This document shows, piece after piece, positions 7,203-34,993 of a stretch of DNA of 40,283 bases. Both the position numbers and the translations under genes were made by a program. The notes beneath the pieces are model-generated. The model was not told the DNA's origin. It worked only from the letters and a program-made list of their open reading frames with translations, and did no database searches. Source of the DNA: a virus (lineage: Duplodnaviria > Caudoviricetes); IMG/VR virus record IMGVR_UViG_3300037518_000480, positions 1 through 40,283 of that record. The stretch is one strand, 5' to 3'. Positions within the stretch are counted from its first letter, which is position 1. Each line of letters opens with the position of its first letter.

Positions 7203-7460
7203 ATGATAAAAATTGTTATTCTTCAGCGTGGGTGGGTGTTCATTGGCAAGCTCTCACAAGAGGGGACGCTTTGCACACTCACTGACGCTTACAATATCCG
7301 TCGGTGGGGAACCACTGATGGGTTAGGTCAGCTCGCATTAGAAGGTAAGCAGGCAGAAACGAAGCTCGATAAAATTGGAACTGTTTCATTCCACGAGTTA
7401 ACGTCTGTGGCATTTTTGGATGTCAACGAAGACGTATGGAAAAACGAGTTCACAACCTAA
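7203..7460 (+). CDS. small beta-rich phage protein (resembles the DUF6948/Sm-like type)
   Basis: IVILQRGWVFIG...AYNIRRWGTTDGLGQLALEG; family recalled from motif, not searched. Confidence 0.65.
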   Translation: MIKIVILQRGWVFIGKLSQEGTLCTLTDAYNIRRWGTTDGLGQLALEGKQAETKLDKIGTVSFHELTSVAFLDVNEDVWKNEFTT

Positions 7461-7768
7461 CCATTGCCGCGGGTTGTTTTGAGGAATCTCAATCAACCTA
7501 CGGCTACGGCGACGGCGAAGGCGACGGCTACGGCTACGGCAACGGCTACGGCAACGGCGACGGCTACGGCGACGGCGAAGGCGACGGCTACGGCGACGGC
7601 AACGGCGACGGCTACGGCGACGGCTACGGCTACGGCAACGGCGACGGCGAAGGCGACGGCTACGGCGACGGCGAAGGCGACGGCTACGGCTACGGCAACG
7701 GCGACGGCGAAGGCGACGGCGAAGGCGACGGCGAAGGCGACGGCTACGGCGACGGCTACGGCCTCTGA
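7436..7768 (+). CDS. Gly-X repeat protein (GDGYG/GDGEG/GNG)
   Basis: ~21-aa leader, then strict G-[YDEN] alternation encoded by a 6-nt periodic GGC-NAN repeat at 7499-7762. Confidence 0.7.
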   Translation: MEKRVHNLTIAAGCFEESQSTYGYGDGEGDGYGYGNGYGNGDGYGDGEGDGYGDGNGDGYGDGYGYGNGDGEGDGYGDGEGDGYGYGNGDGEGDGEGDGEGDGYGDGYGL

Positions 7769-10886: not shown

Positions 10887-11528
10887 ATGAAAACATTAGA
10901 ACTGTTTAGTGGAACGAAGTCATTTAGTAAAGTCGCAAAGGAGTGGGGATTTGAAACCCTTACTTTTGATAACGAGGTTCACCTTGAACCTGATCGAGTG
11001 GTAGATATAATGGTCGTAAATACACTTCCGAAGTGTGATGTGTTGTGGGCCTCACCACCCTGCACTACTTTCTCGGTTGCTTCTATCTCTCATTACTGGG
11101 TTGCCGGAAAGCCAAAGAATGAGAAAACCTTACACGGTATTGCTATGCTTGAACAGACAATCAAGCTGATAAAAAAAACAAAACCGAAGTATTGGTTTAT
11201 TGAAAATCCAAGAGGAATGATGAGAAAAGTGATTGACGAGTTATTTGCAAAGCACGGCATTAAAAACTATAAGCGGAACACAGTATCATATTGTCAGTAT
11301 GGCTCAAAAATAATGAAGCCAACCGATATATGGACTAACTCCCCGTGGGTTTCAAAACCTATATGTAAGCCGGGTGCTTCTTGTCATTTACGAGCAGGTA
11401 CAGGATCGAAGTCGGGAGTGCAAGGTATCTACTCTTTGGACTGGGAAAAAGGCAGAGAAAATACGGCTACGGCTAGGGGTGTAATACCGCCATCATTATT
11501 CGTTGAGATTTTTAATCAAATTGTATGA
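10887..11528 (+). CDS. short phage-type C5 cytosine DNA methyltransferase
   Basis: LELFSG (motif I), ASPPC (IV), IENP (VI). Confidence 0.85.
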   Translation: MKTLELFSGTKSFSKVAKEWGFETLTFDNEVHLEPDRVVDIMVVNTLPKCDVLWASPPCTTFSVASISHYWVAGKPKNEKTLHGIAMLEQTIKLIKKTKPKYWFIENPRGMMRKVIDELFAKHGIKNYKRNTVSYCQYGSKIMKPTDIWTNSPWVSKPICKPGASCHLRAGTGSKSGVQGIYSLDWEKGRENTATARGVIPPSLFVEIFNQIV

Positions 11529-11788
11529 CAAAAGAAGAAACGAAAGCCGCCATTGCCTCGGCTTATGACTACTTGCGACAAGCTCAGTCAGCAAGTGGTA
11601 TCACGTCGGACAAAGTCACTAGCTTTAGAGTTGAGGAAGCGGGAAAAGATGACGATGGAACATTCAGAATCACTCTAAGTTATGAAGTGATTGGAGATTT
11701 TCCTTTTGATAGGAAAAAAGAGTTCAAGGATTTTGTACTTAGTTCCGACGGTACTACTGTAATCTCAATGAAGATACGGACGATTTAG
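11525..11788 (+). CDS. small protein of the type found upstream of PIN genes (antitoxin-like)
   Basis: RVEE...ITLSY...EFK...VISMKIR; ATGA-coupled to the MTase. Confidence 0.6.
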   Translation: MTKEETKAAIASAYDYLRQAQSASGITSDKVTSFRVEEAGKDDDGTFRITLSYEVIGDFPFDRKKEFKDFVLSSDGTTVISMKIRTI

Positions 11789-11797
11789 ACGGCTCAC

Positions 11798-12217
11798 ATG
11801 TACTCTCTTTCGGATATAGACAAGTATGTTCTTCGGTATCAGCCGAAAGGGATAATAGTAGATACGAATCCGTTAATGCTTTTGATGGTCGGCTACTTTA
11901 ACCCTGCCCGTATCCAAACCTGCAAGACCACTAGTATGTTCTGTGAGAAAGATTTTGACGTACTCAAGGACATAGTTACTCGCTTCAAGAAGATAATAGT
12001 TACCCCGTATATTCTTGCAGAACTATCTAATCATTCCATGAAATCATGGGGTCGTGAGAGCAGAGACTTGTATGCCTACTTTCAGAAAATGATTAGTTTT
12101 ATGGAATCAGCAGAGGAAAGTAACCACTCACTTAAAAATCTCTTAAACAAAGAGGTGGAAAAGCGAGGTTGCTTATCGTTCCCGACAACAAAGCAAAGAC
12201 ACACGGAGATTTTCTAA
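11798..12217 (+). CDS. PIN-domain protein, probably C-terminally truncated
   Basis: IIVDTN and TPYILAELSN motifs; later acidic motifs not evident. Confidence 0.7.
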   Translation: MYSLSDIDKYVLRYQPKGIIVDTNPLMLLMVGYFNPARIQTCKTTSMFCEKDFDVLKDIVTRFKKIIVTPYILAELSNHSMKSWGRESRDLYAYFQKMISFMESAEESNHSLKNLLNKEVEKRGCLSFPTTKQRHTEIF

Positions 12218-12656
12218 ACGAAATGATAGACCCACAAGGCACTAGATTATTGACCGACAAAACAAATCGCCTAGACAAAGTAGCGATAGGTTTCAATTTG
12301 ATTGAGGAAAAAAAATGCTCCTGTTCGCGAAGTCGGTTTTTTCGGGATGCTCCGGTGATATGCCCCCGAAGCTCTAAAATGTCCCGTGGTGAAGTTTTGT
12401 AGCAGTTTTGGTGGGTATAATCGTGTCAGGGAGCGCATAAGCTCTGAAGCGCGATTTTGGAGGTTGTGGCGCGAGTGTTGGTGTAGTCCGTGCTTCGGTC
12501 CGGTATATGTATGAATGACAAGGTGCGAGGCACTGCCCTATATGTATTATGGCGTATGGCGCGGGTGTGTCTATTGCCGATAATGGGGATAGCTATTTAC
12601 ATTATTTTATATTTATTTTATATTGTTTATTTTTGAAAGTTATTCACTCATTTCCA

Positions 12657-12685
12657 TTGACAGGCAATATACGGCTCTGTATACT
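12657..12685 (+). promoter_or_regulatory. strong sigma70 promoter heading the G-skewed island
   Basis: AT-rich tract 12595-12640, GTTATTCAC, TTGACA-17 nt-TATACT. Confidence 0.75.
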
Positions 12686-12720
12686 GGTTATATTACTAGA
12701 TAAGATAGCTAAAAAAAGCT

Positions 12721-13023
12721 ATGAAACTAACAGTACGGGACAATGGAGCGATACTAGAAGCCGTGGGACAAGAAGAGAGTAGAGCGCTGTTTGAGTTTTA
12801 TGTCAATGTTCCGAAAGGGGAGCATAGGCGCGGTAGGCACGGAGGCGAGTATATACAGCTTATCGTGAAAAAGATAGGCGAGCTAGAATCGGGCGAAAGT
12901 ATGTTTATCTCGAGAGCGGAATATCCCTTGAAGTCACATCCGTCCTCAGTGCTTGCGTACTACTACCCTCGTCAACTCAATGCAAAAAGTGTGCACGGCG
13001 GTTGGGAGATTACGAAGCAATAG
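12721..13023 (+). CDS. hypothetical, possibly DNA-binding protein
   Basis: RRGR basic patch then LESGESMF...GWEITK, resembling small phage DNA-binding proteins. Confidence 0.55.
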   Translation: MKLTVRDNGAILEAVGQEESRALFEFYVNVPKGEHRRGRHGGEYIQLIVKKIGELESGESMFISRAEYPLKSHPSSVLAYYYPRQLNAKSVHGGWEITKQ

Positions 13024-13123
13024 TTTGTGTTTGGCGAGCAGGGCAAGTGTTCCATTCATTTTCTTGCTCTGTTCGGTGGACGTAAAAAGATTATTAGTGT
13101 GTGTTATATAACACAAAAAAGAT

Positions 13124-13354
13124 ATGAGACCAGCAGAAAAGAACGGAAACATTGCGGTAACTATCGGGAGATTTGGCACAGTGCCAGAAGAAGTTATTGT
13201 GCCGAAAGATAGTACCGTGGCAGACGCGCTTGAGGAGGCGGGTGTGGAATGGGAGGGTGATGTATTCGTCAATGGTATTCGTGCAGGACGTAGAGACCTG
13301 TTAGACAACGGCGACACCATCAACATTGTAGCACGGAAAGAGGCAGGGCTATAA
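13124..13354 (+). CDS. ubiquitin-like beta-grasp protein (ThiS/MoaD superfamily)
   Basis: 76 aa; STVADAL, VFVNG, LDNGDTINIV, C-terminus KEAG-L. Confidence 0.85.
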   Translation: MRPAEKNGNIAVTIGRFGTVPEEVIVPKDSTVADALEEAGVEWEGDVFVNGIRAGRRDLLDNGDTINIVARKEAGL

Positions 13355-13359
13355 GTAAC

Positions 13360-13407
13360 AAGAATTATGGAGGGGCACACGTCCAGTCCCTCTCATAATT
13401 CTTATTT
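13360..13407 (+). terminator. hairpin/partial terminator between Ubl and E2-like genes
   Basis: aagaattatggagggg...ccctctcataattctt-attt. Confidence 0.6.
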
Positions 13408-13415
13408 GAAAAATT

Positions 13416-14321
13416 ATGATGAAAAAAAATAAATCGCGTGATGAATGGATAAAAAAGTCCGTACAGTGCTTTCAGGAGCATTTGCTATTGGACGATTTTA
13501 GTGATGCTACGCGAAAAATTTTTGGTAAAATGGTGCTAAGTAATGGTAATAGTGGTGAGTTATCGGTGGCTGGTTTTGCGGGTGTCGTAGAAAGTCCTAA
13601 TAGAGTATATATTTTGCAAGATGAAATTTGTGGTGCTGTCCCTCATTTGGTGTCTATTGAGCCGTTTATTTATTCTTACTATGTTTCCACGGGGGATTGT
13701 ATTTTGGCATCGGACCAGTTCATAGAGTCGGATGATCCTCTGGTGAAGCGCTCGGTGTTCCCCGACTTGAGATGTCAGCAATTGCGCGAAAAAGCGGAAG
13801 AGTTTAAGCGGGGTGAAGTATACAAGGAAATACAGGAGCAAATGAAGTCCTCCGTAGACAAAGACAACCCTCAAAAAAAAGTGGAGGCATTCACGGAGTA
13901 TTTGGATAGTGGTTTGAACCGTCTTGATGGTATTGACATTGTAGAAAAGACGAAAATGGAAAGAGGGATTTTGGTAGTAGACACAAAAGAGCTTTACTCG
14001 CAATTTTTGGGGCGTACTATCGGCGCATATAGATTACGGATACCGTCAATACAATTCAATCAACATTTATGCGTGTACGCAAAAAATCTCAATGCAGAGA
14101 AGCTTAATCGCTCTTTTTACGCGGCGGCTACAAAGAATGGCAAGTTATGTTTTGGTGAGTACGTGTTCGATATGGAGGCGCTTGTACACAGGGGCGACAT
14201 TTGTGGGTTGGTGCTTGCGCTCATTATTTTTTTGCAGACAGCAGGGGATAACGGTGCATACGAAAGTGGTACATATTGGAGTAAGGAGCTGGATTATCAT
14301 TACAAAGGAATATCACTATGA
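13416..14321 (+). CDS. putative prokaryotic E2/UBC-like conjugating enzyme with N-terminal extension
   Basis: C-terminal IGAYRLRI...NGKLC245FG...LALIIFLQT matches the G-x-x-C-x-G plus helix pattern of prokaryotic E2s; canonical HP motif absent; lies between Ubl and JAB. Confidence 0.6.
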   Translation: MMKKNKSRDEWIKKSVQCFQEHLLLDDFSDATRKIFGKMVLSNGNSGELSVAGFAGVVESPNRVYILQDEICGAVPHLVSIEPFIYSYYVSTGDCILASDQFIESDDPLVKRSVFPDLRCQQLREKAEEFKRGEVYKEIQEQMKSSVDKDNPQKKVEAFTEYLDSGLNRLDGIDIVEKTKMERGILVVDTKELYSQFLGRTIGAYRLRIPSIQFNQHLCVYAKNLNAEKLNRSFYAAATKNGKLCFGEYVFDMEALVHRGDICGLVLALIIFLQTAGDNGAYESGTYWSKELDYHYKGISL

Positions 14322-15142
14322 AAATAAAACTAACAAAAAACGCTACGATGAAGCTCCGTACCTATGTGAAATACGCGGACGGTGAGGTCAGTGGGCTCGG
14401 TACGGTTGATGTGGCGGGCGGGGATTTTATGGTGGATGATGTTTGTATCTTTGAGCAGACGGCAAGCGCGGTGCATACGGAGCTATCGCAGGCCGCGCTG
14501 GCGAAGTTTATGCACGAAAAAATGAAAGCGGGTGAGGATGTGTCGCGGTATATGCTGTGGTGGCATAGCCACGGCGATATGGATGTTTTTTACTCGTCTA
14601 CGGATACCGGAACGCTTGATGGGCAGGAGGGAAGTACTCCGTGGCTCTTGTCGCTTATCACAAACAAGCAGGGCGAGTATGTAGGACGGCTTGATGTATA
14701 CGAGCCAGTGCATATCTATATCGATGTATCCGTGAGCGAGGAAAAATTATACGAGGATGTACCAGCGTGCAAAATAGAGATTGAAAAGATGTTGCATCGT
14801 AGAGTAGACCAGTATGGCTCCGGCAAAGGGTACAATACGGGTAAAAGACAGCTAGGGTTATATCCGGGGATGAAGAGTAGTAGGGATTATGTGAAATACA
14901 CGTCTTTTGAAAAGCACGGGGCGTCTCTTAATGATTACCCGTCTATTCGGTGGAGCGAGGAAACGGAGGAGTGGCACGACGAAACGCTTGGAATGTCTTG
15001 CGAGAAGTATACAACGCTAGTGAGTGTTCATAAGAATCCGAAAGTGTTGGAGTGGGATAAGGAGCATCAGCTTTTTTGTCATAAGGACACGGGTGAGTGG
15101 GTATATCCTTTAGGGAAAAAATATAACTATGCTGGACACTAG
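14318..15142 (+). CDS. JAB/MPN+ metalloisopeptidase
   Basis: E23...WWH83SH85GDMDVFYS93STD96 = E-Xn-HxH-x7-S-x2-D. Confidence 0.9.
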   Translation: MKIKLTKNATMKLRTYVKYADGEVSGLGTVDVAGGDFMVDDVCIFEQTASAVHTELSQAALAKFMHEKMKAGEDVSRYMLWWHSHGDMDVFYSSTDTGTLDGQEGSTPWLLSLITNKQGEYVGRLDVYEPVHIYIDVSVSEEKLYEDVPACKIEIEKMLHRRVDQYGSGKGYNTGKRQLGLYPGMKSSRDYVKYTSFEKHGASLNDYPSIRWSEETEEWHDETLGMSCEKYTTLVSVHKNPKVLEWDKEHQLFCHKDTGEWVYPLGKKYNYAGH

Positions 15143-15761
15143 GCGACATCGGGATATTTTTGACGCGGATAGAATGCTCCCGCCCATTGTTATTATCGGG
15201 TGCGGGAGTGTAGGAAGCAATGCGGCGGTCTCCTTGGCGCGGCTCGGTTTCAAGCACTTCGTTCTCTACGATGATGACCGAGTAGAAGCACACAATATCA
15301 CCAGTCAGGCGTACAGTGCGGAGGATATAGGTGCGTATAAGGTGGACGCGCTACGGGATATACTCACGGCTATAAATGAGGACACGGGAATATACCCGAA
15401 ACGCGAGCGCGTGTCTGCCTCCAACCGTCCCGATGTCGGGCAGGGAGTAGTCATCGTTGCGGTTGATACTATGGCGGTCCGGCGAGAAATTGCCCCGCTT
15501 CTTATCGGATGTTCCGCTATTGTGGATGGCAGAACTGGTGGCGGACAAGTAGAGGTGCATACACATAAAAGTATCAAAGAATATACCGGGTCCTTGCCCG
15601 AAAAGGTATCGGATGACCCCTGTACTGCGAGATTTACTCCATACACTGCGGCAATAGCTGGAGCTCTCATAACGAATCAAGTAAAACGGCTACTGCGTGG
15701 TGAGAGTGTATATAGGGATATAGTATTCCACATTGACACACTAGAGCTCCTAAAGAACTGA
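15129..15761 (+). CDS. ThiF/MoeB/E1-family adenylyltransferase
   Basis: IIGCGSVGS, DDDRVEAHN, KVDAL, AVD..AVR, DGR, candidate catalytic Cys165 (DPCTAR); no CxxC Zn pairs. Confidence 0.92.
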   Translation: MLDTRRHRDIFDADRMLPPIVIIGCGSVGSNAAVSLARLGFKHFVLYDDDRVEAHNITSQAYSAEDIGAYKVDALRDILTAINEDTGIYPKRERVSASNRPDVGQGVVIVAVDTMAVRREIAPLLIGCSAIVDGRTGGGQVEVHTHKSIKEYTGSLPEKVSDDPCTARFTPYTAAIAGALITNQVKRLLRGESVYRDIVFHIDTLELLKN

Positions 15762-15767
15762 CAGCAC

Positions 15768-15799
15768 TTGACAAGTATACAGATAAGAATATACTTGTC
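15768..15799 (+). promoter_or_regulatory. promoter overlapped by a 10-bp inverted repeat
   Basis: TTGACA-16 nt-TATACT; gacaagtata/tatacttgtc. Confidence 0.65.
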
Positions 15800-15833
15800 G
15801 GTATAGGTACGATTATCAGCTAAAGTAGAGCGT

Positions 15834-16145
15834 ATGAGGAAATATATACTGATTACCGCCTATATAATGATTATTGCGGCGATTATAGCGGTTTTCTACA
15901 AACCGAGTCGCGGGGTTGAGACAAAACTAACGTCTGTTACCGAAGAACTTAATGCGTGTATTGAGGCTTTTGGTGATGACATTGCGCCATACGAACGAAT
16001 ACCGCTCATTGAGACTGTAGACCAAGCTGTTATGTTTTTAGAGGGATATAAGGATGCGCTCCGGAGAAAACTTGCGTGTCAAGATGCTCTTTTTGAGGGG
16101 AAGTACGTATATACAACTCTTGAGGAACTTCTGTTCACGAAATAG
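15834..16145 (+). CDS. membrane-anchored hypothetical protein
   Basis: N-terminal hydrophobic helix, helical remainder. Confidence 0.7.
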   Translation: MRKYILITAYIMIIAAIIAVFYKPSRGVETKLTSVTEELNACIEAFGDDIAPYERIPLIETVDQAVMFLEGYKDALRRKLACQDALFEGKYVYTTLEELLFTK

Positions 16146-16175
16146 AACTCTGTGTTATTAAGAACAATTATTCGT

Positions 16176-16295
16176 ATGAAGAACTTTATAGGGTGGCTAT
16201 GTATTGTCGCTGTCTTTGCTTTTTTGGCGTATGCCTTTTTGTATTGTGCGTTTTCCGGTGTGTTAGGTTATGCCGCGTGTAACGGCGCTTTTTAG
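16176..16295 (+). CDS. 39-aa membrane peptide
   Basis: MKNFIGWLCIVAVFAFLAYAFLYCAFSGVLGYAACNGAF. Confidence 0.5.
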   Translation: MKNFIGWLCIVAVFAFLAYAFLYCAFSGVLGYAACNGAF

Positions 16296-16346
16296 TGGGA
16301 CCTGCCCGACTACATTCAGGCGGGGATGTGCTAGAATGTATCTACT

Positions 16347-16817
16347 ATGGCCCAGATGCTCAAAAACCCTCCAATGGAGGATAGAGTGGATAGATTTATC
16401 AAGCTCTACCCGAAGCATAACTTTACTGTGTATCGTGCCGCTATGGAAGCAGGATACAGCGAAACATACGCACGAACTAACCCCCGGCACATAATGGAAA
16501 CCGCACTAAAGCGGATGTCTCTACGCACACAATCCGCCTCAAAGGGTGAGCTTGTGGAACAGAAAGAGGTATTGACAAGTGTCCTTGATATTGTTGGAAT
16601 GACGAGTAAAGAGGTGAAAAAATACTATCGTGGTGTGGTTGAACAGACAAAGGATCGAGCAACACAACTAAAAGCTCTCAAGCCCTTACTGCGTGAACTA
16701 GGTGTCCTCTTTGAAGAGGACATACAGCCCAAAACACCAGTGACATTCAATCTAGGCATCAGAGAAGGGACTATTGACAAACCCACTACTGTGGGTGATG
16801 ATGTTGCCGCACATTAA
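16347..16817 (+). CDS. terminase small subunit-like protein
   Basis: AAMEAGYSETYA HTH motif; upstream of TerL; TG-C-TAGAAT at 16329-16337. Confidence 0.75.
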   Translation: MAQMLKNPPMEDRVDRFIKLYPKHNFTVYRAAMEAGYSETYARTNPRHIMETALKRMSLRTQSASKGELVEQKEVLTSVLDIVGMTSKEVKKYYRGVVEQTKDRATQLKALKPLLRELGVLFEEDIQPKTPVTFNLGIREGTIDKPTTVGDDVAAH

Positions 16818-17234: not shown

Positions 17235-18764
17235 ATGACAAATTTGAGTAAAACAGAGGCGGAGGGGATTCTATGGCTCAAAGGAGAGTATGAGGTCACC
17301 CATTTCAATGATTTCGTGCTCAATGAGAAGCAGGTGCTCTTTCTTAATGAGAAGTCGCGCTTCAATCTCATATCGGGAGGCATGTCGTCGGGGAAGACGC
17401 TCGCGTTCATCGTGAAGGTGATTCTCCTTTCGCAGTGGTTTCCGGGGTGCAAAATGCTCATCGGGCGTAAAACGAAAGAAAATGCCCAAGAGACGTTCAT
17501 GAAGGACTTTATGGACATTTGCCCCAGCTCTCTCTATGAGCACCAAAAAGGGTATGGGAAGATTGTGTTCTCGAATGGAAGCGAGGCGGAGTTCTGGGGG
17601 CTTGACGCCCTGCAGTCGGGCGCGGCAACCGACATCAAGAAGGCGGAACAGAAGCTCAAGTCCCATAACTTTTCTTTCATATTTATTGACCAGCTTGAAG
17701 ATGTCGAAGAAAAGGTCTTCAGCGCTCTCAACTCCCGCATGCGCCGTCGTCAGTGCCACCATGAACGCTCCCTACAGACCGTTCATAGAAATAAAAAGGG
17801 AGAGCCGCTCTTTGAGCTCTGCTCGGTCTGCGGGAAAGCATCCTTCAGTCAGTTCAACATGACCACCAACCCCGCGAACTTCTGGGCGCTCTCCTACTTC
17901 AAAACCAATCCGAGGCCGTTCACGCACTTGATTGAGACCTCCATGCTCGACAACCGAACACATCTTTCCGACCAGTTCATAGAGTCGGAACTGGAGAAAC
18001 CGGAGAGATACGTTCGCAAATATGTCTATGGCGAGTGGTCAACTGATTCTCTGGTGGAGCGCTCGGTGTTCCCCGAAGAGTACATCAAGGCGCAGGAGTT
18101 TCATATTAAACCCCCCATTCGGGAACTTGACGGAATCAAAATATGGGAAGAGCCGTCAAAAGACCAGACGTACCAGATTGGTATTGACCCCTCGCTCGGC
18201 GCGGTAGACCCGTCGTCGATACAGGTTATCTGTATTGGAAGCGGGGTACAGGTCGCCGTCTATTCGGGCTTTGTCCCGACTGCCGCTCTTACCGAACGAG
18301 CGGTTCGTCTTGCCACTATGTACTCTTTGAAGGGGAAGCCACTTATTATCCCCGAAGCCGTTGGCGTGGGGGAGGCGCTTATTGAGTCGCTGAAGCGTGT
18401 ATACTCGCGCATCTATGAGCGAGAGGTGTTTTCGGAGCGCGAGGCGAAGACCACCAAGAAGCTGGGCTTTCATACCTCGCACGCCACGAAGTCACATTTG
18501 ATTGAACATATGGACAAGTTGTTCTCAAAGGGGTTTGTACATATACGCGACATCGACACCCTCGCCGAGATTCGGACGTTTGTCTATTCCGACGAGGTGC
18601 GCCACAGGGGGGCGGGTGCCGAGTCGGGATTTCATGATGACCGCATCATGGCGCTCATGCTTGCGTACTTCAATATATTTCCCCAAACGCACAAGGAGAA
18701 GACCCTTTTGTCGCGTCTCAAAACGGCACAAAAGAAGAATGTGGTACAATTTGAGTACGAATAG
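17235..18764 (+). CDS. terL: terminase large subunit
   Basis: Walker A GGMSSGKT, Walker B FIFIDQ, motif III TTNP, nuclease IGIDP and HDDRIMA. Confidence 0.93.
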   Translation: MTNLSKTEAEGILWLKGEYEVTHFNDFVLNEKQVLFLNEKSRFNLISGGMSSGKTLAFIVKVILLSQWFPGCKMLIGRKTKENAQETFMKDFMDICPSSLYEHQKGYGKIVFSNGSEAEFWGLDALQSGAATDIKKAEQKLKSHNFSFIFIDQLEDVEEKVFSALNSRMRRRQCHHERSLQTVHRNKKGEPLFELCSVCGKASFSQFNMTTNPANFWALSYFKTNPRPFTHLIETSMLDNRTHLSDQFIESELEKPERYVRKYVYGEWSTDSLVERSVFPEEYIKAQEFHIKPPIRELDGIKIWEEPSKDQTYQIGIDPSLGAVDPSSIQVICIGSGVQVAVYSGFVPTAALTERAVRLATMYSLKGKPLIIPEAVGVGEALIESLKRVYSRIYEREVFSEREAKTTKKLGFHTSHATKSHLIEHMDKLFSKGFVHIRDIDTLAEIRTFVYSDEVRHRGAGAESGFHDDRIMALMLAYFNIFPQTHKEKTLLSRLKTAQKKNVVQFEYE

Positions 18765-22484: not shown

Positions 22485-22679
22485 ATGGTTAAGGCAAAAG
22501 CCCCAGCCAAGACGGCTACCAAGCCCGACATACTAGAGGTGCTGTATGCACGAGAGCAAGGATTGACTCTGCAGAGTGACCGCTGGGAACTCCGTCAGGA
22601 GCTTCTCAAGGTGTGTGACCTGCTCGCAGAGCGTCACGCTGACAAAAAAGTGCATGAGCGACAGCCCAAAACCCTTTAG
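22485..22679 (+). CDS. hypothetical protein, leaderless first gene of the glycan island
   Basis: TG-T-TATACT 22470-22478, ATG 6 nt later. Confidence 0.6.
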   Translation: MVKAKAPAKTATKPDILEVLYAREQGLTLQSDRWELRQELLKVCDLLAERHADKKVHERQPKTL

Positions 22680-23334
22680 AGGAACCATAGGGGTACCATC
22701 GCGGGACCACTTGGTTACACCTACGGCTTTTGCCTATTCTCTTATTCGTCTTATTCGGCACTGTGACCGCATTTGGGGGTGCGGTTCGGTATGTCTTGAA
22801 ACGGTTGAGGGCTCTCTTTTGGAGGAAAACAGAACGGCGCTACTTAACAGGGCGCGCGGGGGGTGGCTTCTCATGCTTGATGACGATATGACGTTCCCCC
22901 ACGACCTTGCCGAGAAGCTGGATGGGCATATAGAGGACGGCAAGGACATTGTGACGGGGCTCTATTTCTTGGGATATAAACAGAAACCCGCACCTGCTAT
23001 TTACACAACTGACACAACAATGGGCAACCCTGCGGCGTTTTACTACAACTATCCCGAAGACCAGCTCGTAGAGGTGGGCGGGTGCGGTATGGGGGTATGT
23101 ATGATTTCACGCCGTGTTCTGAACGCATTTCTGGGCAAAGAGGCGTTTAATCGAGTGTACAAGATGGGAACGCGGGTGGGGGAGGACTTGGCGTTTTGCT
23201 ATAAGGCGAGAGAAAGGGGGTTCAGGATTTGGTGTGATACATCGGTCAAGGCGGGACATATCAGACCCTATACCTTGACAGATAATCAACCGTTTGTAAC
23301 TATGGAAACATATGGCAAATCCTTCAACGGGTAA
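22654..23334 (+). CDS. GT-A fold (GT2-like) glycosyltransferase
   Basis: LMLDDDM (DxD), GCGMG, GEDLAFC, AGH. Confidence 0.88.
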   Translation: MSDSPKPFRGTIGVPSRDHLVTPTAFAYSLIRLIRHCDRIWGCGSVCLETVEGSLLEENRTALLNRARGGWLLMLDDDMTFPHDLAEKLDGHIEDGKDIVTGLYFLGYKQKPAPAIYTTDTTMGNPAAFYYNYPEDQLVEVGGCGMGVCMISRRVLNAFLGKEAFNRVYKMGTRVGEDLAFCYKARERGFRIWCDTSVKAGHIRPYTLTDNQPFVTMETYGKSFNG

Positions 23335-23704
23335 GGTGTTCTTCTTCCTTCGCAGGAACCCCATAACGGGAGAAGTCATTGAGGACGACTACCTTGATGC
23401 CGACGAGAAAACTGCGTGGATGTATATCAAAACACCCAGATTTTTTAAGTACATTGGGTGGTCAGACGGACACTTCTTTAGGGAGGTGAAGAAGCGCGGA
23501 ACGATTGACCCCGAGACGCGCATGATGGTCGAAACGACTGAAGAGCACAGGAACGCAATCCACGAAGCGTGGAAAAAAGAGATTGAGTTCGCTAAGGAAC
23601 ATCCGCAACCTCCAAGAAACTTGAGCCGTCTTGACATTGACGGGCGCCCTCTACAAGACCCGGGCCTCGCGGGTGAGTTGAGTAGATTGAGACCCAATGG
23701 ATAA
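23312..23704 (+). CDS. hypothetical protein
   Basis: Overlap-coupled ORF. Confidence 0.65.
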   Translation: MANPSTGKVFFFLRRNPITGEVIEDDYLDADEKTAWMYIKTPRFFKYIGWSDGHFFREVKKRGTIDPETRMMVETTEEHRNAIHEAWKKEIEFAKEHPQPPRNLSRLDIDGRPLQDPGLAGELSRLRPNG

Positions 23705-24014
23705 AGAGACACAAAACTTTCTTCGGCGACAGCCACCCAAGAAGCTCATGAAGAAACTTTTCAAGAAAGAGCGTCAGATGGACGACGAGATGAAGACGCT
23801 CTCTCAAATGGCAACAGACAAGAGGTTGTCTCTCAAACAGAAAGACAAAATACGGCGCGTGCTTGAGTTCAACAAGGACAAGCTAGAGGAGCATGTTGTG
23901 GTTGACGATGAAACGGCCAAAAAGGTCGAGAAGTGGCACGAAGACCGCGTTCGGTGGGGCATACGAGAGGGAATTATCAAGCCGCCAGACCCGCGCGATA
24001 TGCCGAGAAAATGA
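23697..24014 (+). CDS. charged helical hypothetical protein
   Basis: Overlap-coupled ORF. Confidence 0.65.
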   Translation: MDKETQNFLRRQPPKKLMKKLFKKERQMDDEMKTLSQMATDKRLSLKQKDKIRRVLEFNKDKLEEHVVVDDETAKKVEKWHEDRVRWGIREGIIKPPDPRDMPRK

Positions 24015-24745
24015 AAATAGTCGGCATGCTCGTGGTCGGGGCGGGCGAAGGAGACCGATGGTTATCCGAGGTTCTTGAACAGAGAAAACAATTAGTAGAC
24101 GAACTCATTATTTGTGGCAACAAAACAGACAAAAAAACAAAAGAAGTCATCAAAAGAAGCGGTGCGTGGTACTACGAAGACGACAGAGAGTGGGGGATAC
24201 ATCAGCCAAGCATTAAGGATAATTTGCTCGAAAGAGTTGGAAAACTTAAGCCGGATTGGGTACTCCCGTCTGACGCAGATGAGATTTACGATAAGCAGTT
24301 TACCCGCGGAGAAGCAGAACGTCTTGCAGGTACAGGTGCAATCGGATATTACTTTGCGCTCATCAACCTCTGGGGAGACGGCGAGCACTATCGCCACGAC
24401 CTATCGTTTTGGAACATCAGATTCTTCCAGTATCGTCCCGACCTCGGCACCAGATACGAAAGAAAAAACGTCCACTGTGGACTAGCGCCGCCGGTATTTT
24501 ACCACTACGGGTGGCACGCCCCGTTTATGGTAAAACATTACGGACTGATGAAAGAGGAAGACAGGAAACTCAAAGTGAAGCGTTACGAGAAGTACGACCC
24601 GAAGGCGGTATTCAAAGGGCGGGATTATTACGATAAGTTATTAACTAACGATATGGTGCGTCCGTTTGATGAAGACGTTATGCACGAGAGAATAGCCCGA
24701 GACGTTGCAGAGCACTTTAAGGACGAAACCAAGAAGCATGTTTAG
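24011..24745 (+). CDS. GT-A fold glycosyltransferase
   Basis: WVLPSDADE, HCG, VKHYG. Confidence 0.82.
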   Translation: MKIVGMLVVGAGEGDRWLSEVLEQRKQLVDELIICGNKTDKKTKEVIKRSGAWYYEDDREWGIHQPSIKDNLLERVGKLKPDWVLPSDADEIYDKQFTRGEAERLAGTGAIGYYFALINLWGDGEHYRHDLSFWNIRFFQYRPDLGTRYERKNVHCGLAPPVFYHYGWHAPFMVKHYGLMKEEDRKLKVKRYEKYDPKAVFKGRDYYDKLLTNDMVRPFDEDVMHERIARDVAEHFKDETKKHV

Positions 24746-25013
24746 AAAAAATACACGATTCGTTGAATATGAAAACCTCGTATCGGGCAAGACGGACAAT
24801 ATGCCCGAGAGCGACTGGAACGACATACAGCGCAATCCGTATCGCAGGAAGGACTTTAAGTTTGTGCGGATTATTGACGTTGGCGGTCCCGCCTCAAACA
24901 CCTCGGGCGGAGAGCGCCCACCCATAGAAGAGGACCCGCTTGAATGTCCTCTGTGCGGGTACGTTGCGGAAGATGACAAAGACCTTCACACCCATAAAGA
25001 AAAGAAGCATTAG
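24738..25013 (+). CDS. C2H2 Zn-finger protein
   Basis: CPLCG...LHTHKEKKH. Confidence 0.7.
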   Translation: MFRKNTRFVEYENLVSGKTDNMPESDWNDIQRNPYRRKDFKFVRIIDVGGPASNTSGGERPPIEEDPLECPLCGYVAEDDKDLHTHKEKKH

Positions 25014-25896
25014 GATTCTCTATGTTGGCGGGTTTGGCAAGAACTCGGTTGGGGAACCCGAAATAGCAAATGCGCTTGAGTGTCTCGGACACAGCGTTAC
25101 ACGAAAGGAATCCAGTTTCACAACACCCGCGGAGATTGAGTCCTTAACGTCCGACTTTGACTTGCTTCTTTTCTCAAAGGTTAAGACACCCGTCAATCTT
25201 GAAGCACAGCGAATGATAGCTCGGCTCACGATACCTACCGTGTCGTGGGTATTTGACCTGTACTGGGGATATGAGCGACAGCAGATGTTTAATACCGAGC
25301 CGCACTTTGTCGCCGACGTTGTGTTCACCACAGACGGGGGACACGAGGAACAATTTGAGCGACGCGGTATTCGCCACCACTGTCTTCGTCAGGGTATTGC
25401 CGAAGGAATAAAACCCGCGCCACGGTGGAATGGCAAACCGATTATTTTTGTCGGTTCAGACAGGTCAAATCTTCAGCGAACCGAACTCTTAAAGTGGCTC
25501 CGAAGAACCTACCCCGATGACTTTGCCGTGTACGGCGAACGGGACGGTGTGCGACACGAGAAACTGGATAAGGTTATCGGGGGCGCAAAGATTGTTATGG
25601 GGGACTCGGTTATTTCTCCTCACTACTGGTCAAACCGAATATACGAAACCATCGGTCGAGCGGGATTTATGTTGCACCCCAAAACCGAGGGGCTCGACGA
25701 CGAGTTCCGCTACTACAAGCACTTTGTCCCCTACACCGCGGGCGACTGGAAAGGACTGAAGGAAAAGATTGACCACTACCTCACCCACGATAAAGAACGC
25801 GACGCAATACGCATGGCGGGATATGAACACTGTCATAAGGAGCACACCTATACGCACCGAGTTAAGAAAATGCTTGAAATACTCCGTCATGAGTAA
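24973..25896 (+). CDS. GT-B glycosyltransferase (CgeB/YkvP-like); start 24973 ATG or 25009 ATT
   Basis: RILYVG, IIFVGS, YWSNRIYETIG, HTYTHR. Confidence 0.85.
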   Translation: MTKTFTPIKKRSIRILYVGGFGKNSVGEPEIANALECLGHSVTRKESSFTTPAEIESLTSDFDLLLFSKVKTPVNLEAQRMIARLTIPTVSWVFDLYWGYERQQMFNTEPHFVADVVFTTDGGHEEQFERRGIRHHCLRQGIAEGIKPAPRWNGKPIIFVGSDRSNLQRTELLKWLRRTYPDDFAVYGERDGVRHEKLDKVIGGAKIVMGDSVISPHYWSNRIYETIGRAGFMLHPKTEGLDDEFRYYKHFVPYTAGDWKGLKEKIDHYLTHDKERDAIRMAGYEHCHKEHTYTHRVKKMLEILRHE

Positions 25897-26455
25897 CATA
25901 AGCGACACGGGAGTGTGGAACGACGAAACAAAAGAGGAGTTCCTCGCGCGGTATGTGTTCTTTGACCGAGAGCTTGCCGCCGCACTGTCAAAACTGTTTT
26001 GGAAGTGTGGGGTGGTTGACCTTGGGTGCGGTTCGGGAAAGTATGTACAGTCGCTCCGAAATCGCGGGATTGACTGCGACGGATATGATGGCAACGCCCG
26101 CATTGAGGAGTTTACGGGCGGCGTGTGCAAGGCGTGGGACTTGACAGTTCCGAAGACCCTTCCAAAGAAATACGACTGGGTGCTATCGCTTGAGGTTGCG
26201 GAACATATTCCCCGTGAACACGAGGCAACCTACATACAAAACCTGCACAACAACAACACGAAAGGAATTGTTTTGTCGTGGGCGGACATCGGGCAGAACG
26301 GGGACGGTCATGTAAACTGCAGGCGAGGGGAGTATGTACGGCGTGTTTTTGAGAAACTCGGATACGGGGCTGACACCAAACAAACGGAGATACTTCGGCT
26401 CTGCGCCTCACTCGGATGGTTTAAGAAGAACATAATCGTGTTTAGAAAGAAATGA
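25889..26455 (+). CDS. class I SAM-dependent methyltransferase
   Basis: VVDLGCGSG, SLEVAEHIP, GQNGDGHVN. Confidence 0.88.
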   Translation: MSNISDTGVWNDETKEEFLARYVFFDRELAAALSKLFWKCGVVDLGCGSGKYVQSLRNRGIDCDGYDGNARIEEFTGGVCKAWDLTVPKTLPKKYDWVLSLEVAEHIPREHEATYIQNLHNNNTKGIVLSWADIGQNGDGHVNCRRGEYVRRVFEKLGYGADTKQTEILRLCASLGWFKKNIIVFRKK

Positions 26456-27261
26456 GAATTGCGTATTGTAACGGAACGGAGTGGCTGAACGCCCTCGCCC
26501 TTGAACTGGAGGCGCTCGGACACACGATAACTGACGAATCGCCGGACGCAGTTATTGGCATGTCCATTTCACAGATGCCTCGTATTTGGCAGATGCACCA
26601 CACATACCCCGATGCCCTGCTCTTTAACTACTCGTGGGACATCTACTCGTGGGTGTGGACAACTCCAAGACCCGGTGAATACGACTACAAACGATATGTG
26701 GAACTTCTCAACGAGAGCACGGAGGTGTGGGTGCCGTCCGTGGCAGAGCAGAAACGCCACGACAAACTCTCCATACCCACCACGGTCATCAAGTCGTACT
26801 CGCTCTACTTCCCGCTTGAGAGAACGAACGGCGGGTATGTGTTCAATGCTATGCGTGAGATACCTGACGAAGAGTGGGGATGGGCGCGTAAGGCGTGTGA
26901 AGAGTTAGGGATTCCTTATGTGGAGAGCGACAGAAACCGAACCTTTGAAGAGTACAAAGATGTCCTCTCGGGCGCACGACTCCTTATCAGTCCAAACAAA
27001 GAAGCGTCAACGGGAGGACTGTCACTCATTGAGGGATATTACAACGGCATACCCGCTCTCGTGAATGGAGGTGGGGGAAACGGGGGAAACGAGTATGTTC
27101 CTTGCACGACCTTTCTGGGGTATGATGACTTGCGGAATAAGTTGCTTGAAAGTTTCCCTGTTCTTGATGTGGCTAAGTGTCGAAAGTGGGTCGAGCAAAA
27201 CTACTCACCGCGCATCATGGCGGAGAAAGTGAACACACGACTATGCGAGTACAAATCTTGA
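26452..27261 (+). CDS. GT-B (GT4-like) glycosyltransferase
   Basis: MRIAY..., EASTGGLSLIEG (E-x7/8-E). Confidence 0.75.
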   Translation: MRIAYCNGTEWLNALALELEALGHTITDESPDAVIGMSISQMPRIWQMHHTYPDALLFNYSWDIYSWVWTTPRPGEYDYKRYVELLNESTEVWVPSVAEQKRHDKLSIPTTVIKSYSLYFPLERTNGGYVFNAMREIPDEEWGWARKACEELGIPYVESDRNRTFEEYKDVLSGARLLISPNKEASTGGLSLIEGYYNGIPALVNGGGGNGGNEYVPCTTFLGYDDLRNKLLESFPVLDVAKCRKWVEQNYSPRIMAEKVNTRLCEYKS

Positions 27262-27809
27262 CCTCTCGACCGGTTGGAGAAGAGTGCAAGCTCTGGGTGC
27301 GAGAACGCGGCGTAGAGTTGGTGGACAGCAACCCCGATGTGCTGATTTCGGTGATGTATGACCGCGTGCTCTCGGAGTTTCCCGCGAGGTCGTTCAACTT
27401 CCACCCCGGAGTTCTCCCCCAGTATCGCGGCTCGGGCGCGTTCAGTTGGGCAATCATCAACGGAGAAGTGGAGACGGGCATCACCCTCCATGAGATTGAC
27501 GAGGACATCGACCACGGTGCAATCATCGACATCGTGAGATTTCCAGTTGACCCCAACGACACGGCGGGAACTCTCTACGAGCGGGGGATGCAATACCTGT
27601 TCTTTATGTTTCAGCGATGGTTTGACCGGATTGTCTCCGGCGACTACACGGTTATCTCCCAAGACAAGTGGCGCGGGAGAATCTACTACCGGCGCGACCT
27701 AGAGCGAGAGAAAGACCTTACCCGCTACGCCAGAGCGTTTGAGTTTGCGGACAAGGAGCGGGCGTTTTACTACAACCGCAAGGGGGAAAAGGTGGAGCTC
27801 GTCTGGTAG
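27243..27809 (+). CDS. N10-formyl-THF-dependent formyltransferase (probable sugar N-formyltransferase)
   Basis: NFHPGVLPQYRG, GITLHEIDEDIDHG; lacks the Fmt C-terminal domain. Confidence 0.88.
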   Translation: MRVQILTSRPVGEECKLWVRERGVELVDSNPDVLISVMYDRVLSEFPARSFNFHPGVLPQYRGSGAFSWAIINGEVETGITLHEIDEDIDHGAIIDIVRFPVDPNDTAGTLYERGMQYLFFMFQRWFDRIVSGDYTVISQDKWRGRIYYRRDLEREKDLTRYARAFEFADKERAFYYNRKGEKVELVW

Positions 27810-27823
27810 CTCCGCCTCTTTTT

Positions 27824-28540
27824 ATGAAGCTACACGAATACAACATAGAGTGGTACATAGACCAAATGGCGACCCCTTTTTCGTTCCCGGGGTTTTCTGA
27901 TGCAGAGTGGTTTTGTCTTATAGGCGAGCGGCACGGCAACAGAACGGGGTACGGACAGTTGCTTACTGACCAAGCAAACGACCTTCTTCTCTACACGCTC
28001 CATCAGCAGGGTCGCATGTTTCCCGCTATGCCGAAGCAAATGCTGTCTTTCCCGCAGGGGACAACGATTAAGGCATTTATCGCTTCTCATAGTCCACACG
28101 AGCTTCACTTCTACGAACGGGACATGGTAACTGACGAACTCGCGGAACGCGCGGGTCTTGCGCCACTAATCAAGAAACTACGAACCATGCAAGTTGGATT
28201 CGTCGGTAACCCTGCACTCAAGAAACTGGACGTGTTTCCCATTCATAGGTTTTATGCAACCGACCCGAACGATTTTCATTTGAACCGAAAGGGTATGCAG
28301 GGAGTGGTACGGCAGATTATGAAAGACCGTGATTGCGACATCTATCTGTTCTCGTCAGGAATATCCGCGGCGTGTATAATAGGCATGTTGCACGGAAAGC
28401 TCCGCGCGACACTCTTTGACTGCGGTAGCATATGGGATGCGTTTATAGGAATAGGTGGTCAGCGTGAGTGGAGAAGTAGATTGTATTCTGATGAAAAATT
28501 ATTAAGTAACTGGAAAGAAAAAAACAAACCTATACCATGA
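27824..28540 (+). CDS. possible GT-D-fold glycosyltransferase
   Basis: FSDAEW, LFSSG, DCGSIWD resemble GT-D motifs. Confidence 0.55.
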   Translation: MKLHEYNIEWYIDQMATPFSFPGFSDAEWFCLIGERHGNRTGYGQLLTDQANDLLLYTLHQQGRMFPAMPKQMLSFPQGTTIKAFIASHSPHELHFYERDMVTDELAERAGLAPLIKKLRTMQVGFVGNPALKKLDVFPIHRFYATDPNDFHLNRKGMQGVVRQIMKDRDCDIYLFSSGISAACIIGMLHGKLRATLFDCGSIWDAFIGIGGQREWRSRLYSDEKLLSNWKEKNKPIP

Positions 28541-28716
28541 TTACAAAGATTACAAAAAAACGACGTATGACGACCCTCGAACTAATAGAAAAACTGAAAG
28601 AGGTCGTAGAGATCGTTGGGTGTGAGTGTCACGACTATGAAAGGTGTGCATGTAACTGTCACACAATTAGAGATGTCATTAAACGACTATACAGGAGGTT
28701 AAGAAATGAAGTTTGA
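28537..28716 (+). CDS. 59-aa Cys/His-cluster protein
   Basis: CECHDYERCACNCH; overlaps both neighbours. Confidence 0.55.
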   Translation: MITKITKKRRMTTLELIEKLKEVVEIVGCECHDYERCACNCHTIRDVIKRLYRRLRNEV

Positions 28717-29371
28717 GTCAATAGAAATGGGCGGATTTACGTTTTTCTTTCCGCCTAACGAGTCAAACGTAGAGTGGTCTAATGCCAATGTTATAGATGG
28801 AGTTATTAACGGCGGGTATTATGGGGGCGATTTGGAAGGGGTGGTTGTTGATATAGGCGCAAATGTCGGCAGTTTCTCCCTGCTTGCCTCACGACAGGCA
28901 GAGAGAGTGATTGCGTACGAGCCAGACCCTCGGAACATTGAGTGTCTGCTAAAGAACATCAAAACAAACAAGGTCAAAAATATCGTTGTTCACCGACAGG
29001 CGGTTGGTACCCCCGGCACAAGAACACTCAACGTAAATCTTATCAACTGCGGTCATAGCAATCTGTACTTTGCGAACGACGAAAAAGAACAGACAGAAGT
29101 TGAGAGTGTCTCGTTGGCACAGGTGTTTGACGATAACAACCTTGACCGCATTGACGTTTTGAAGGTTGATTGCGAGGGTGCGGAGTGGGAGTTTCTCTTT
29201 GAAGGAGAGGCGTTGCTGAACAGAGTTGAGCGGATAGTGATGGAAGTACATTTCTACCATAAAGGACAAACGCTGGAAGCGATGAAAAAGTTTCTCTCAA
29301 GACGTTTCAAGATACAAGACATCGGACAAACCACCGATACGGCGTTTATCCTGCGGGCATACAAGAAGTGA
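28706..29371 (+). CDS. FkbM-family methyltransferase
   Basis: VVDIGANVG, YEP, LKVDCEGAE, MEVH. Confidence 0.92.
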   Translation: MKFESIEMGGFTFFFPPNESNVEWSNANVIDGVINGGYYGGDLEGVVVDIGANVGSFSLLASRQAERVIAYEPDPRNIECLLKNIKTNKVKNIVVHRQAVGTPGTRTLNVNLINCGHSNLYFANDEKEQTEVESVSLAQVFDDNNLDRIDVLKVDCEGAEWEFLFEGEALLNRVERIVMEVHFYHKGQTLEAMKKFLSRRFKIQDIGQTTDTAFILRAYKK

Positions 29372-29383
29372 TATACTATATTC

Positions 29384-29641
29384 ATGGCGAATGTATTAGG
29401 CACAAAACTGGCAGTTACCAGTACCGAAAACACAAAGCTGTTTGGCACAAACTATCAACTGCTTCATATTAAGAATCAGGGTTCCACCGACTGTCAGATT
29501 GACTTTGACCAAGCGGTGTCTGACGACTCGTATCTCTTGGAGGCGGGCGAGGCACTCACCATTACCAACTATGCCGTAATTCGTCTGCACTTTAAGACTG
29601 CAAGTGGAACAACCACGCTTTATACTCTCGTACTCAAATGA
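29384..29641 (+). CDS. small beta-sandwich virion (decoration/spike-base-like) protein
   Basis: LHIKNQG...LEAGEALT pattern; own leaderless promoter TG-A-TATACT 29369-29377. Confidence 0.55.
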   Translation: MANVLGTKLAVTSTENTKLFGTNYQLLHIKNQGSTDCQIDFDQAVSDDSYLLEAGEALTITNYAVIRLHFKTASGTTTLYTLVLK

Positions 29642-29726
29642 TTACTTTTCACAAAAGCGACAGGAAAACGAGGAAACTACTTCTTGGTATTTTGGTCGTT
29701 TTGATTTATAACTTCCTACTTGACGT

Positions 29727-31040: not shown

Positions 31041-31041
31041 T

Positions 31042-31317
31042 ATGAGCCTTGATTCACCACACAGCGAAATAATGCATACACTCGGCAAGCTTGAAGGTAA
31101 GCTTGACGCACTTCACGCACAGGTAGTCATTCAGAACGGACGCATTGGAAAAGTGGAAAGCGGTAAGATAGACAAAGAGGATGTAATTCGCTTGAACGCA
31201 GATACTGACCACGACCAAAGAGAGTTCAACCGACGGATAAGTCGCAATGAAAAGGCAATCTGGGCTATCGGCGGAGGGGTTGCCGTGTTACAAGCATTGA
31301 CATATCTTGTAAAATAG
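31042..31317 (+). CDS. coiled-coil protein with C-terminal TM (XhlA/holin-like)
   Basis: QNGRIGKVE coiled coil plus WAIGGGVAVLQALTYLV. Confidence 0.6.
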   Translation: MSLDSPHSEIMHTLGKLEGKLDALHAQVVIQNGRIGKVESGKIDKEDVIRLNADTDHDQREFNRRISRNEKAIWAIGGGVAVLQALTYLVK

Positions 31318-31318
31318 T

Positions 31319-33431: not shown

Positions 33432-33813
33432 AAAGATAGCGGAGAGCGTGCCGATTCTCTGCGTGGATGCCATTGTGGTGTATGGGGGTAAGTATCTCTT
33501 GTTAAAACGAACTAACGAGCCGCTGAAGGACGAGTGGTGGGTGCCGGGTGGACGTGTCTTAAAGGGTGAGACGCTTGGAGATGCCGTGATACGAAAGGTT
33601 CGTTCAGAAACGGGACTTGATGTTGTTGTTGTGTGGGACGTGGGATTCTATCAGGAAGAGTTTGTTGACAATGAGTTGGAGATTGAATCTATACATACAG
33701 TATCAGCAGTATTCATCGTTAGCCCGCTCCATACACACATAAAACTCGACAGCACCAGCTCGGCGTTTAAGTGGGCATCAAAACTACCCGAACGATTTAT
33801 GGAACAATTATGA
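33409..33813 (+). CDS. Nudix hydrolase, GDP-mannose mannosyl hydrolase-like
   Basis: PILCVD, KRTNEP, WWVPGGRVLKGE with degenerate Nudix box; adjacent to gmd. Confidence 0.78.
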   Translation: MIPTEEYKKIAESVPILCVDAIVVYGGKYLLLKRTNEPLKDEWWVPGGRVLKGETLGDAVIRKVRSETGLDVVVVWDVGFYQEEFVDNELEIESIHTVSAVFIVSPLHTHIKLDSTSSAFKWASKLPERFMEQL

Positions 33814-34962: not shown

Positions 34963-34993
34963 CCTCGCCCACTTGTGGTGAGTATACAGAACC

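Follow-up and report, generated by a model that had tools for sequence, protein, structure and literature searches.

Described ubiquitin-like operons and the phage cassette

Among the described systems closest to the locus reported here are the bacterial Bil operons (types I and II), a host anti-phage defence with four separate genes in the order bilA (ubiquitin-like protein, Ubl), bilB (E2), bilC (JAB peptidase) and bilD (E1) (PMC10557695; this and our other accounts of published systems follow the accessible parts of the papers cited). Here we describe a cassette of four genes and 2.6 kb with the same order, Ubl-E2-JAB-E1, carried by a phage of the Caudoviricetes; the window analysed is the complete IMG/VR record IMGVR_UViG_3300037518_000480 (40,283 bases, classed as linear by IMG/VR and about 60% complete according to CheckV). 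Protein families, conserved catalytic residues, a predicted fold and synteny together indicate that the cassette is a real, conserved and probably functional ubiquitin-like cascade. Our preferred interpretation, to which we assign a probability of roughly 0.5, is that Ubl, E1, UBC-fold E2 and JAB form an E3-free cascade for the covalent tagging of proteins, with host proteins in the early phase of infection as the most likely substrates and takeover of the host or blunting of its defences as the outcome.

A preliminary description of this DNA had likened the operon to Bil, and that likeness holds in part. Gene order is equal, and both systems have Ubl residues beyond the glycine, a Cys-based E1 and E2, and no E3. 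BilD, however, consists of inactive and active adenylation domains (IAD and AAD) followed by a CYS domain of about 80 residues with a four-cysteine zinc site, whereas the cassette E1 is a minimal, single-domain ThiF type of 210 residues whose only cysteines are at positions 25, 128 and 165, and which therefore has no such zinc site; the PADLOC model for BilD covers only its residues 20-123. BilB has a C...H arrangement (CEHH), while the cassette family carries H-P-H or H-W before the Cys, and the PADLOC models for BilA and BilB match neither the cassette Ubl nor its E2 at E 0.1. Finally, Bil belongs to the host, whereas the cassette clade is viral.

The other described systems share different features with the cassette. 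Bub operons (6E/DUF6527; PMC11601596) have a minimal adenylation domain of the homodimer type, a nucleophile in the crossover region and a JAB that trims the precursor, but they use Tyr in the E1 and Ser in the E2 as nucleophiles, form oxyesters, contain fused genes and include BubE, whereas the cassette has an invariant Cys in both enzymes and four separate open reading frames (ORFs). DUF6527 had no match in the window or among 281 families of viral neighbours (620 clusters from 80 viral loci, of which 281 of the 283 representatives of at least 120 residues were scanned, in the range 120-700 residues; proteins below 120 residues and two above 700 were excluded). The PRTRC operons, or type 6d (TIGR03736 ThiF; PMC1779556), likewise encode stand-alone Ubl, E2, JAB and E1 proteins on mobile elements. 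The cassette E1 nevertheless scores 38.5 bits with TIGR03736, against a cut-off of 144.75, and no PRTRC model matches the other three genes or the 34 E2 cores aligned below; the cassette also lacks a JAB-N domain and an alpha-helical partner, and its E2 family has the His before the Cys rather than after it as in PRTRC. Type II CBASS (Cap2, an E2-E1 protein, and Cap3, a JAB; PMC11601596) combines a ThiF-type E1 with an E2 and a JAB, and the PADLOC E1-E2 and JAB models match the cassette weakly; here, in contrast, there is no E2-E1 fusion, no CD-NTase or effector in the window, and a real Ubl is present. The archaeal SAMP2/UbaA/JAMM1 system and ThiS/ThiF pairs resemble the cassette in their minimal E1 and in the Ubl, whose profile is nearest to SAMP2/ThiS, but the E2 is a fixed member of the cassette and no linked sulfur partner was found among the 281 neighbour families of the viral loci. 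Sampylation is not known to require an E2. By these comparisons the cassette belongs to none of Bil, Bub, CBASS and PRTRC. It forms a separate family, borne largely by viruses, whose kind is known from bacterial defence.

The E2 protein

The E2 assignment, which the preliminary description called its weakest link and proposed to check by looking for a UBC fold at about residues 170-290, now holds. A hidden Markov model (HMM) built from eight genes at the same position in the nearest viral loci, with the window protein left out, matches residues 134-292 at E 1.3e-14. Cys245, within the motif G242-K-L-C245-F-G247, is the sole invariant column (34/34) in 34 aligned E2 cores selected by this HMM, and of 46 matches in bacterial contigs 43 retain the Cys. 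The family profile finds human UBE2L3 (profile positions 22-152, E 5.5e-5) with H-P-H...C aligned on HPN...C and Cys on Cys, which puts the invariant Cys at the canonical catalytic position. The AlphaFold model (predicted local distance difference test score, pLDDT, 82) shows the helix, four-strand meander and crossover helix of a UBC fold. With this model, 44 of the 45 matches listed by Foldseek were E2 entries (best E 0.035, none at E 0.001), and all 50 matches listed by VIA belonged to the UBC superfamily (best Z 8.4, root-mean-square deviation 3.0 over 111 residues).

Other searches with the E2 returned little. The whole protein found only itself among 5.8 billion proteins and one doubtful repeat-type match among 1.84 billion representatives; a search of BFVD yielded nothing at E 0.001, AlphaFold run on the single sequence gave no fold (pLDDT 33), and no Pfam or NCBIfam family was common to the 34 cores. 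A profile search for longer relatives yielded five proteins among 7996 scored candidates, too weak a result to size the family, and the predicted complex of an E1 dimer with the E2 core (score 0.02) has no bearing either way. At some related loci (L009, L023, L025, L014, L123, L160) several E2 or Ubl paralogues occur, some of them without the Cys or the terminal Gly.

The window E2 departs from its family in one catalytic feature, the HPN-type His before the Cys, which is replaced by Phe/Tyr. This replacement, the terminase debris in the N-terminal part (see below) and the dearth of whole-protein relatives would fit a family that is a real conjugation system but whose copy in the window is decaying or has an inactive E2. 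We regard this as unlikely, as all four frames are open and coupled, the promoter-like site and hairpin are intact, and the E2 keeps Cys245, the flanking G-x-x-C-x-G and the C-terminal F-L-x-T-A-G-D-x-x-A-Y motif. Other prokaryotic E2 classes also lack the upstream His (PMC1779556), and His258 lies 13 residues after Cys245, the spacing of His151 and Cys138 in BilB, although this residue is not conserved in relatives.

The E2 gene further contains an in-frame copy of part of terL, the only duplication in the genome apart from a tandem repeat and the glycine-rich tail gene. Because a homologous terminase (in record G008) keeps the intervening loop that the E2 copy lacks, terL is the donor. Barring an A-rich chance match, no comparable copy from the own genome was found in the E2 genes of eight related records, three of them complete. 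A wider terminase origin of E2 residues 1-135 was considered and is unsupported once the two copied pieces are masked (score 61, against a shuffle maximum of 63). Some host receptors sense terminase, and one could imagine that phages ubiquitylate on their own with the variable N-terminal part of the E2 as bait in place of an E3, the captured piece here luring a terminase-sensing immune receptor that is then tagged off; we consider this highly improbable, and a neutral recombination relic is more likely.

JAB, E1 and the ubiquitin-like protein

The residues first noted in the JAB (E23/H83/H85/S93/D96) and in the E1 (GxGxxG and Cys165) are all present and lie in strongly conserved positions. Against general libraries the JAB is weak (Pfam E 0.0037, PADLOC JAB 5.6e-5), but it is strong against the syntenic JABs beside E1 in related loci (best E 3e-44), and the E, H, H, S and D of its JAMM motif, E...H-x-H-x7-S-x2-D, are kept in 70, 71, 71, 72 and 72 of 72 homologues, respectively. 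The E1 is a ThiF/E1-like adenylase (Pfam ThiF 75.9 bits against a cut-off of 28.1, E 3.5e-21) with G24, G26 and G29 of the GxGxxG in place. All 72 distinct viral homologues carry Cys165, Asp113, Arg118 and Arg135, and the GxGxxG and the ATP-site residues Asp48, Asp50, Asn56 and Lys71 occur in 71.

ThiF is the nearest relative of the E1 among models and structures, and UBA5, like UFC1, appears among the E1/E2 structure matches. These two matches, together with the minimal single-domain E1, the want of an E3 and the long helical N-terminal arms of the E2, as in non-canonical cascades, recall systems that pass the Ubl to a lipid or nucleic acid. Atg7 and Atg3, for instance, join Atg8 to phosphatidylethanolamine. 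Such a non-protein acceptor has no positive sign in its favour, the bacterial cascades characterised in the accessible parts of the literature act on proteins, and we hold it to be very unlikely.

The first gene had been described as a 76-residue beta-grasp protein, which both sequence profiles and structure now bear out. A profile of 26 sequences matches PF1061 (E 2.5e-7), SAMP2 (3.7e-7), MoaD, ThiS and TtuB, and the Atlas structure has a TM (template modelling) score of 0.80 to a ThiS cluster, its nearest feature clusters being viral. In related Ubls a K/R-x-A/G/S-G core is followed by 0 to 6 further residues, so that Leu76 is probably a tail removed by the JAB. BilC trims the BilA precursor likewise (PMC10557695). 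In a distant clade of gut phages, 12 distinct viral Ubls end in K-x-D/N-N-A instead of Gly. Tandem two-domain Ubls occur at loci L016, L033, L036, L058 and L085.

Distribution and genomic context

An alignment-based scan of IMG/VR with the E1 yielded 375 relatives, from which the 80 viral loci were kept; scans of viral contigs with the single E1 or JAB protein had found nothing. The four genes occur together in 33 of the 80 loci under strict cut-offs and in 41 under looser ones, 28 of these as a lone Ubl-E2-JAB-E1 block, and a JAB stands beside the E1 in 79. In a quick tree the window E1 clusters with nine viral loci (support 99), all of which share the exact gene order. Eight of these nine nearest records were compared with the window phage, and little else is shared (terminase, portal-like or SSB-like matches in four), so that the cassette moves between phages. 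That a phage carries the cascade was rightly observed, but this is special neither to the window phage nor to viruses, since the cassette is widespread in phages and bacterial contigs alike.

Matching GTDB genomes gave 141 stretches. Among the 80 retained, 17 have the full set of four genes and another 17 have E2-E1-Ubl without a JAB. The bacterial carriers include Methylomirabilota, lineages of the Candidate Phyla Radiation (CPR), Myxococcota and Chloroflexota, and some cassette members sit in proviruses or chromosomes. Seventeen chromosomal E1s (L087-L106, L127; contigs of Methylomirabilota and relatives) form one clade, mostly in E2-E1-Ubl operons that lack a JAB and lie amid housekeeping genes, moeA, lipA and fdhD among them. 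A Myxococcota chromosome (OZ223209.1) has five close E1 copies (L113, L114, L116, L117, L120) with no Ubl, E2 or JAB detected within 6 kb. Genes for AAA ATPases recur near the cassette in CPR loci (L123, L136, L138, L153) and viral loci (L016, L028, L034), and their products could act on tagged proteins.

Among annotated phages, 86 records contain an E1 match. In Xanthomonas phage PhiXhv-12 a gene next to the E1 clearly belongs to the E2 family (E 1e-14), and no JAB adjoins them. The same four-gene layout is found in crAss001, DAC15, cr106_1 and Flavobacterium phage FpV4, where JAB and E1 are homologous and the first two genes match by motif only. In crAss001 (gp79-gp76) and FpV4 (gp53-gp50) the first gene encodes a putative precursor with K-S-G at about residue 90 and the second an H-S-H...C-x-G; against our Ubl and E2 profiles they score E 0.075-6.6, and they are thus distant analogues by position and motif only. 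GenBank labels the four genes as hypothetical, hypothetical, metalloprotease or hypothetical, and 'thiamine biosynthesis protein'. In the distant gut-phage clade with the K-x-D-N-A Ubl ending, an RVT_1 reverse transcriptase recurs just 3' of the E1 (31 of 80 viral loci, among them L037, L039-L042 and L044-L046; e.g. L057:6083-7450) and possibly forms a linked module with the cassette. We found neither this family nor any phage-borne Ubl-E2-JAB-E1 operon described in the literature, although annotation tables of crAss-like phages, supplements and subscription papers could already name the genes; the accessible parts of the UG27 papers make no mention of ubiquitin, ThiF or JAB.

The neighbourhood bears on the possibility that the genes form a sulfur relay, in which the E1 would adenylate the Ubl for conversion to a thiocarboxylate used in thiolation of a cofactor, tRNA or DNA, the E2-fold protein being an accessory. 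The kinship of the Ubl with PF1061/SAMP2, MoaD, ThiS and TtuB, and of the E1 with ThiF, would suit such a role. The E1, though, falls far below the cut-offs of all named NCBIfam families (ThiF/MoeB, 85 against 159 bits), and the non-Gly Ubl endings of the gut-phage clade argue the other way. As noted in the preliminary description, no linked sulfur partner was seen: ThiG, MoaE, rhodanese and desulfurase are missing from the 51 window ORFs scanned, an absence that is not proven for the whole phage in a record about 60% complete, and no thiamine, molybdopterin (MoaE, MoeA), ThiG, rhodanese, desulfurase or TtuA/thiouridylase match occurs among the 281 viral neighbour families, where small sulfur carriers could be missed and donors or acceptors could come from the host. 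Instead, the viral neighbours match mostly replication, recombination and nucleotide genes (helicases, nucleases, single-stranded DNA-binding proteins (SSBs), RNA repair), along with three radical SAM proteins. The bacterial loci give the relay a weak point of support, as in 42 hand-picked neighbours from 43 loci MoeA lies near four, lipoyl synthase (LipA) near three and FdhD near two, nine in all. A sulfur relay has no need of an E2 whose catalytic position holds an invariant Cys. Taken together, we judge a sulfur relay quite unlikely.

Proposed function

The scheme that we infer, in its chemical steps, E1 dimerisation, timing and target alike, would begin with removal of Leu76 by the JAB and exposure of Gly75. 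A homodimeric E1 would adenylate Gly75 and take over the Ubl as a thioester on Cys165, from which the tag would pass to Cys245 of the E2. Choice of the target would lie with the E2, probably by way of its variable N-terminal part, and the E2 would form an isopeptide bond on a target lysine; the JAB could also remove tags. An E3-free Cys-to-Cys relay ending on lysine has been demonstrated for Bil (PMC10557695). Neighbours of the 80 viral loci include no E3 or other fifth gene common across clades. The gene content and conserved residues make conjugation chemistry probable, and given that chemistry a host-directed early role is somewhat favoured: the position of the cassette among early genes and the host-type promoter-like site before it favour early use against the host.

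Several observations weigh against this interpretation. The E2 fold scores are moderate, with Foldseek at best at E 0.035 and a Z of 8.4 near the level that the tool calls 'common'. A His 7-16 residues upstream of the Cys, absent from the window E2, is present in 30 of the 34 aligned sequences. The Ubl has its nearest relatives among SAMP2/ThiS/TtuB-type proteins, a class that includes several sulfur carriers. The family also occurs in bacterial contigs amid housekeeping genes, a poor fit with a purely anti-host role.

The same tagging chemistry could instead have phage proteins as its targets, whether virion components of a rival phage in a Bil-like exclusion or the replication or packaging proteins of the phage itself. 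Bil, whose gene order bilA-bilB-bilC-bilD is that of the cassette, tags a phage structural protein (PMC11601596). The cassette lies within replication modules in crAss-like and Flavobacterium phages, the window E2 holds a terminase-derived piece, and some members of the family are located in proviruses or chromosomes. Several carriers, however, are cultured phages without annotated lysogeny, which leaves less time for exclusion, and the lack of any BilA or BilB model match also speaks against a Bil-like role. We consider phage-protein targets less probable than the host-directed tagging that we prefer.

Transcription unit and surroundings

The four genes are co-oriented, and the last three are coupled by overlaps, ATGA at 14318-14321 between E2 and JAB and 14 nucleotides (nt) at 15129-15142 between JAB and E1, exactly as first described. 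They lie downstream of genes for RusA and a DNA methylase and directly upstream of the terminase gene (Table 1). The 100-residue ORF that is possibly the first of the transcript has no Pfam, PHROG, NCBIfam or PADLOC match and no homologue among neighbours in the 80 viral loci, and is not a conserved part of the cassette. The promoter-like site behind the E1 likely marks the end of the cassette unit. The hairpin after the Ubl gene would favour a surplus of Ubl relative to the enzymes; hairpins with z < -3 follow 30 of 53 viral Ubl stops, compared with 20 of 76 control genes and 10 of 45 E1 genes, counts that come from loci that are not independent.

Table 1. Positions of the cassette genes and associated features in the window
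Feature	Position	Strand	Remarks
Sigma-70 promoter-like site	12657..12685	+	TTGACA-17-TATACT; 11/12 consensus bases, consensus match only; upstream of the 100-residue ORF and cassette
100-residue ORF	12721..13023	+	Possibly first gene of the transcript
Ubl, SAMP2/ThiS type	13124..13354	+	76 residues; beta-grasp protein; C-terminus K72-E-A-G75-L76
RNA hairpin	13357..13406	+	Directly 3' of the Ubl stop; -22.8 kcal/mol, z -5.4, 0/200 shuffles as good
E2	13416..14321	+	301 residues; private N-terminal part (1-130), helical linker, predicted UBC-fold domain (about 155-285) with Cys245; S-F-Y in place of the family His
terL copy in E2, in frame	13710..13765	+	56 nt, E2 residues 99-117; two adjacent pieces, 22/23 and 31/33 nt identical (E 2e-4 and 9e-9)
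JAB/JAMM metallopeptidase	14318..15142	+	274 residues; domain at 1-160 with E23, H83, H85, S93, D96; unconserved C-terminal tail
E1, minimal, ThiF-type adenylation domain	15129..15761	+	210 residues; invariant Cys165; three Cys in all
Second promoter-like site, near consensus	15768..15795	+	11/12 matches; directly 3' of the E1 stop
terL donor region	17967..18076	+	TerL residues 245-251 and 270-280; the E2 copy skips the intervening 54 nt

Library scans of the ORFs identify terminase, major head, adaptor and M23 peptidase genes in the window, and no helicase, primase or polymerase was recognised there. Nor was an integrase matched in the record, about 60% complete as it is, in agreement with the preliminary description. 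Letters 12600-16400 are identical in the Logan assembly of run X1, which is possibly a source of the same DNA and so is not independent. The contig ends (1-27 and 40257-40282) both lie in a glycine-rich frame and have 22 identical positions within a shared 25-nt stretch, which hints at a near-complete circle, although IMG/VR does not class the record so. The E2 and E1 genes both terminate in TGA. An alternative genetic code, prompted by a TGA at the contig start, was rejected without formal test, the long ORFs being open under table 11.

Elsewhere in the window, two ORFs of lower G+C (87 and 139 residues) without library match lie just upstream at 11525-12217, the longer of which begins with a V-D-T-N motif resembling that of PIN domains. 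A 110-residue ORF of G-D-G-(Y/E)-G repeats (7436-7768) extends over a tandem DNA repeat (7498-7762). Some 13 kb between the capsid and the tail genes (22576-36106) encode glycosyltransferases, methyltransferases, a formyltransferase, a GDP-mannose dehydratase and a DegT aminotransferase, a set that looks like virion or host-surface glycosylation.

Significance

The bacterial Ubl cascades in the accessible parts of the papers cited are host-encoded and, where function has been shown, anti-phage; with a family that is common in phages, ubiquitin-style tagging would stand on the side of the virus in this conflict. Since the family consists of four genes with a classical Cys-Cys relay, it would be easy to rebuild and bears on the origin of E1-E2 cascades. 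Cultured phages carry close or distant versions of the cassette, which makes its targets accessible to testing now. If our interpretation is true, many phage genes labelled 'thiamine biosynthesis ThiF', including that of crAss001, would have to be re-annotated and are probably not metabolic.

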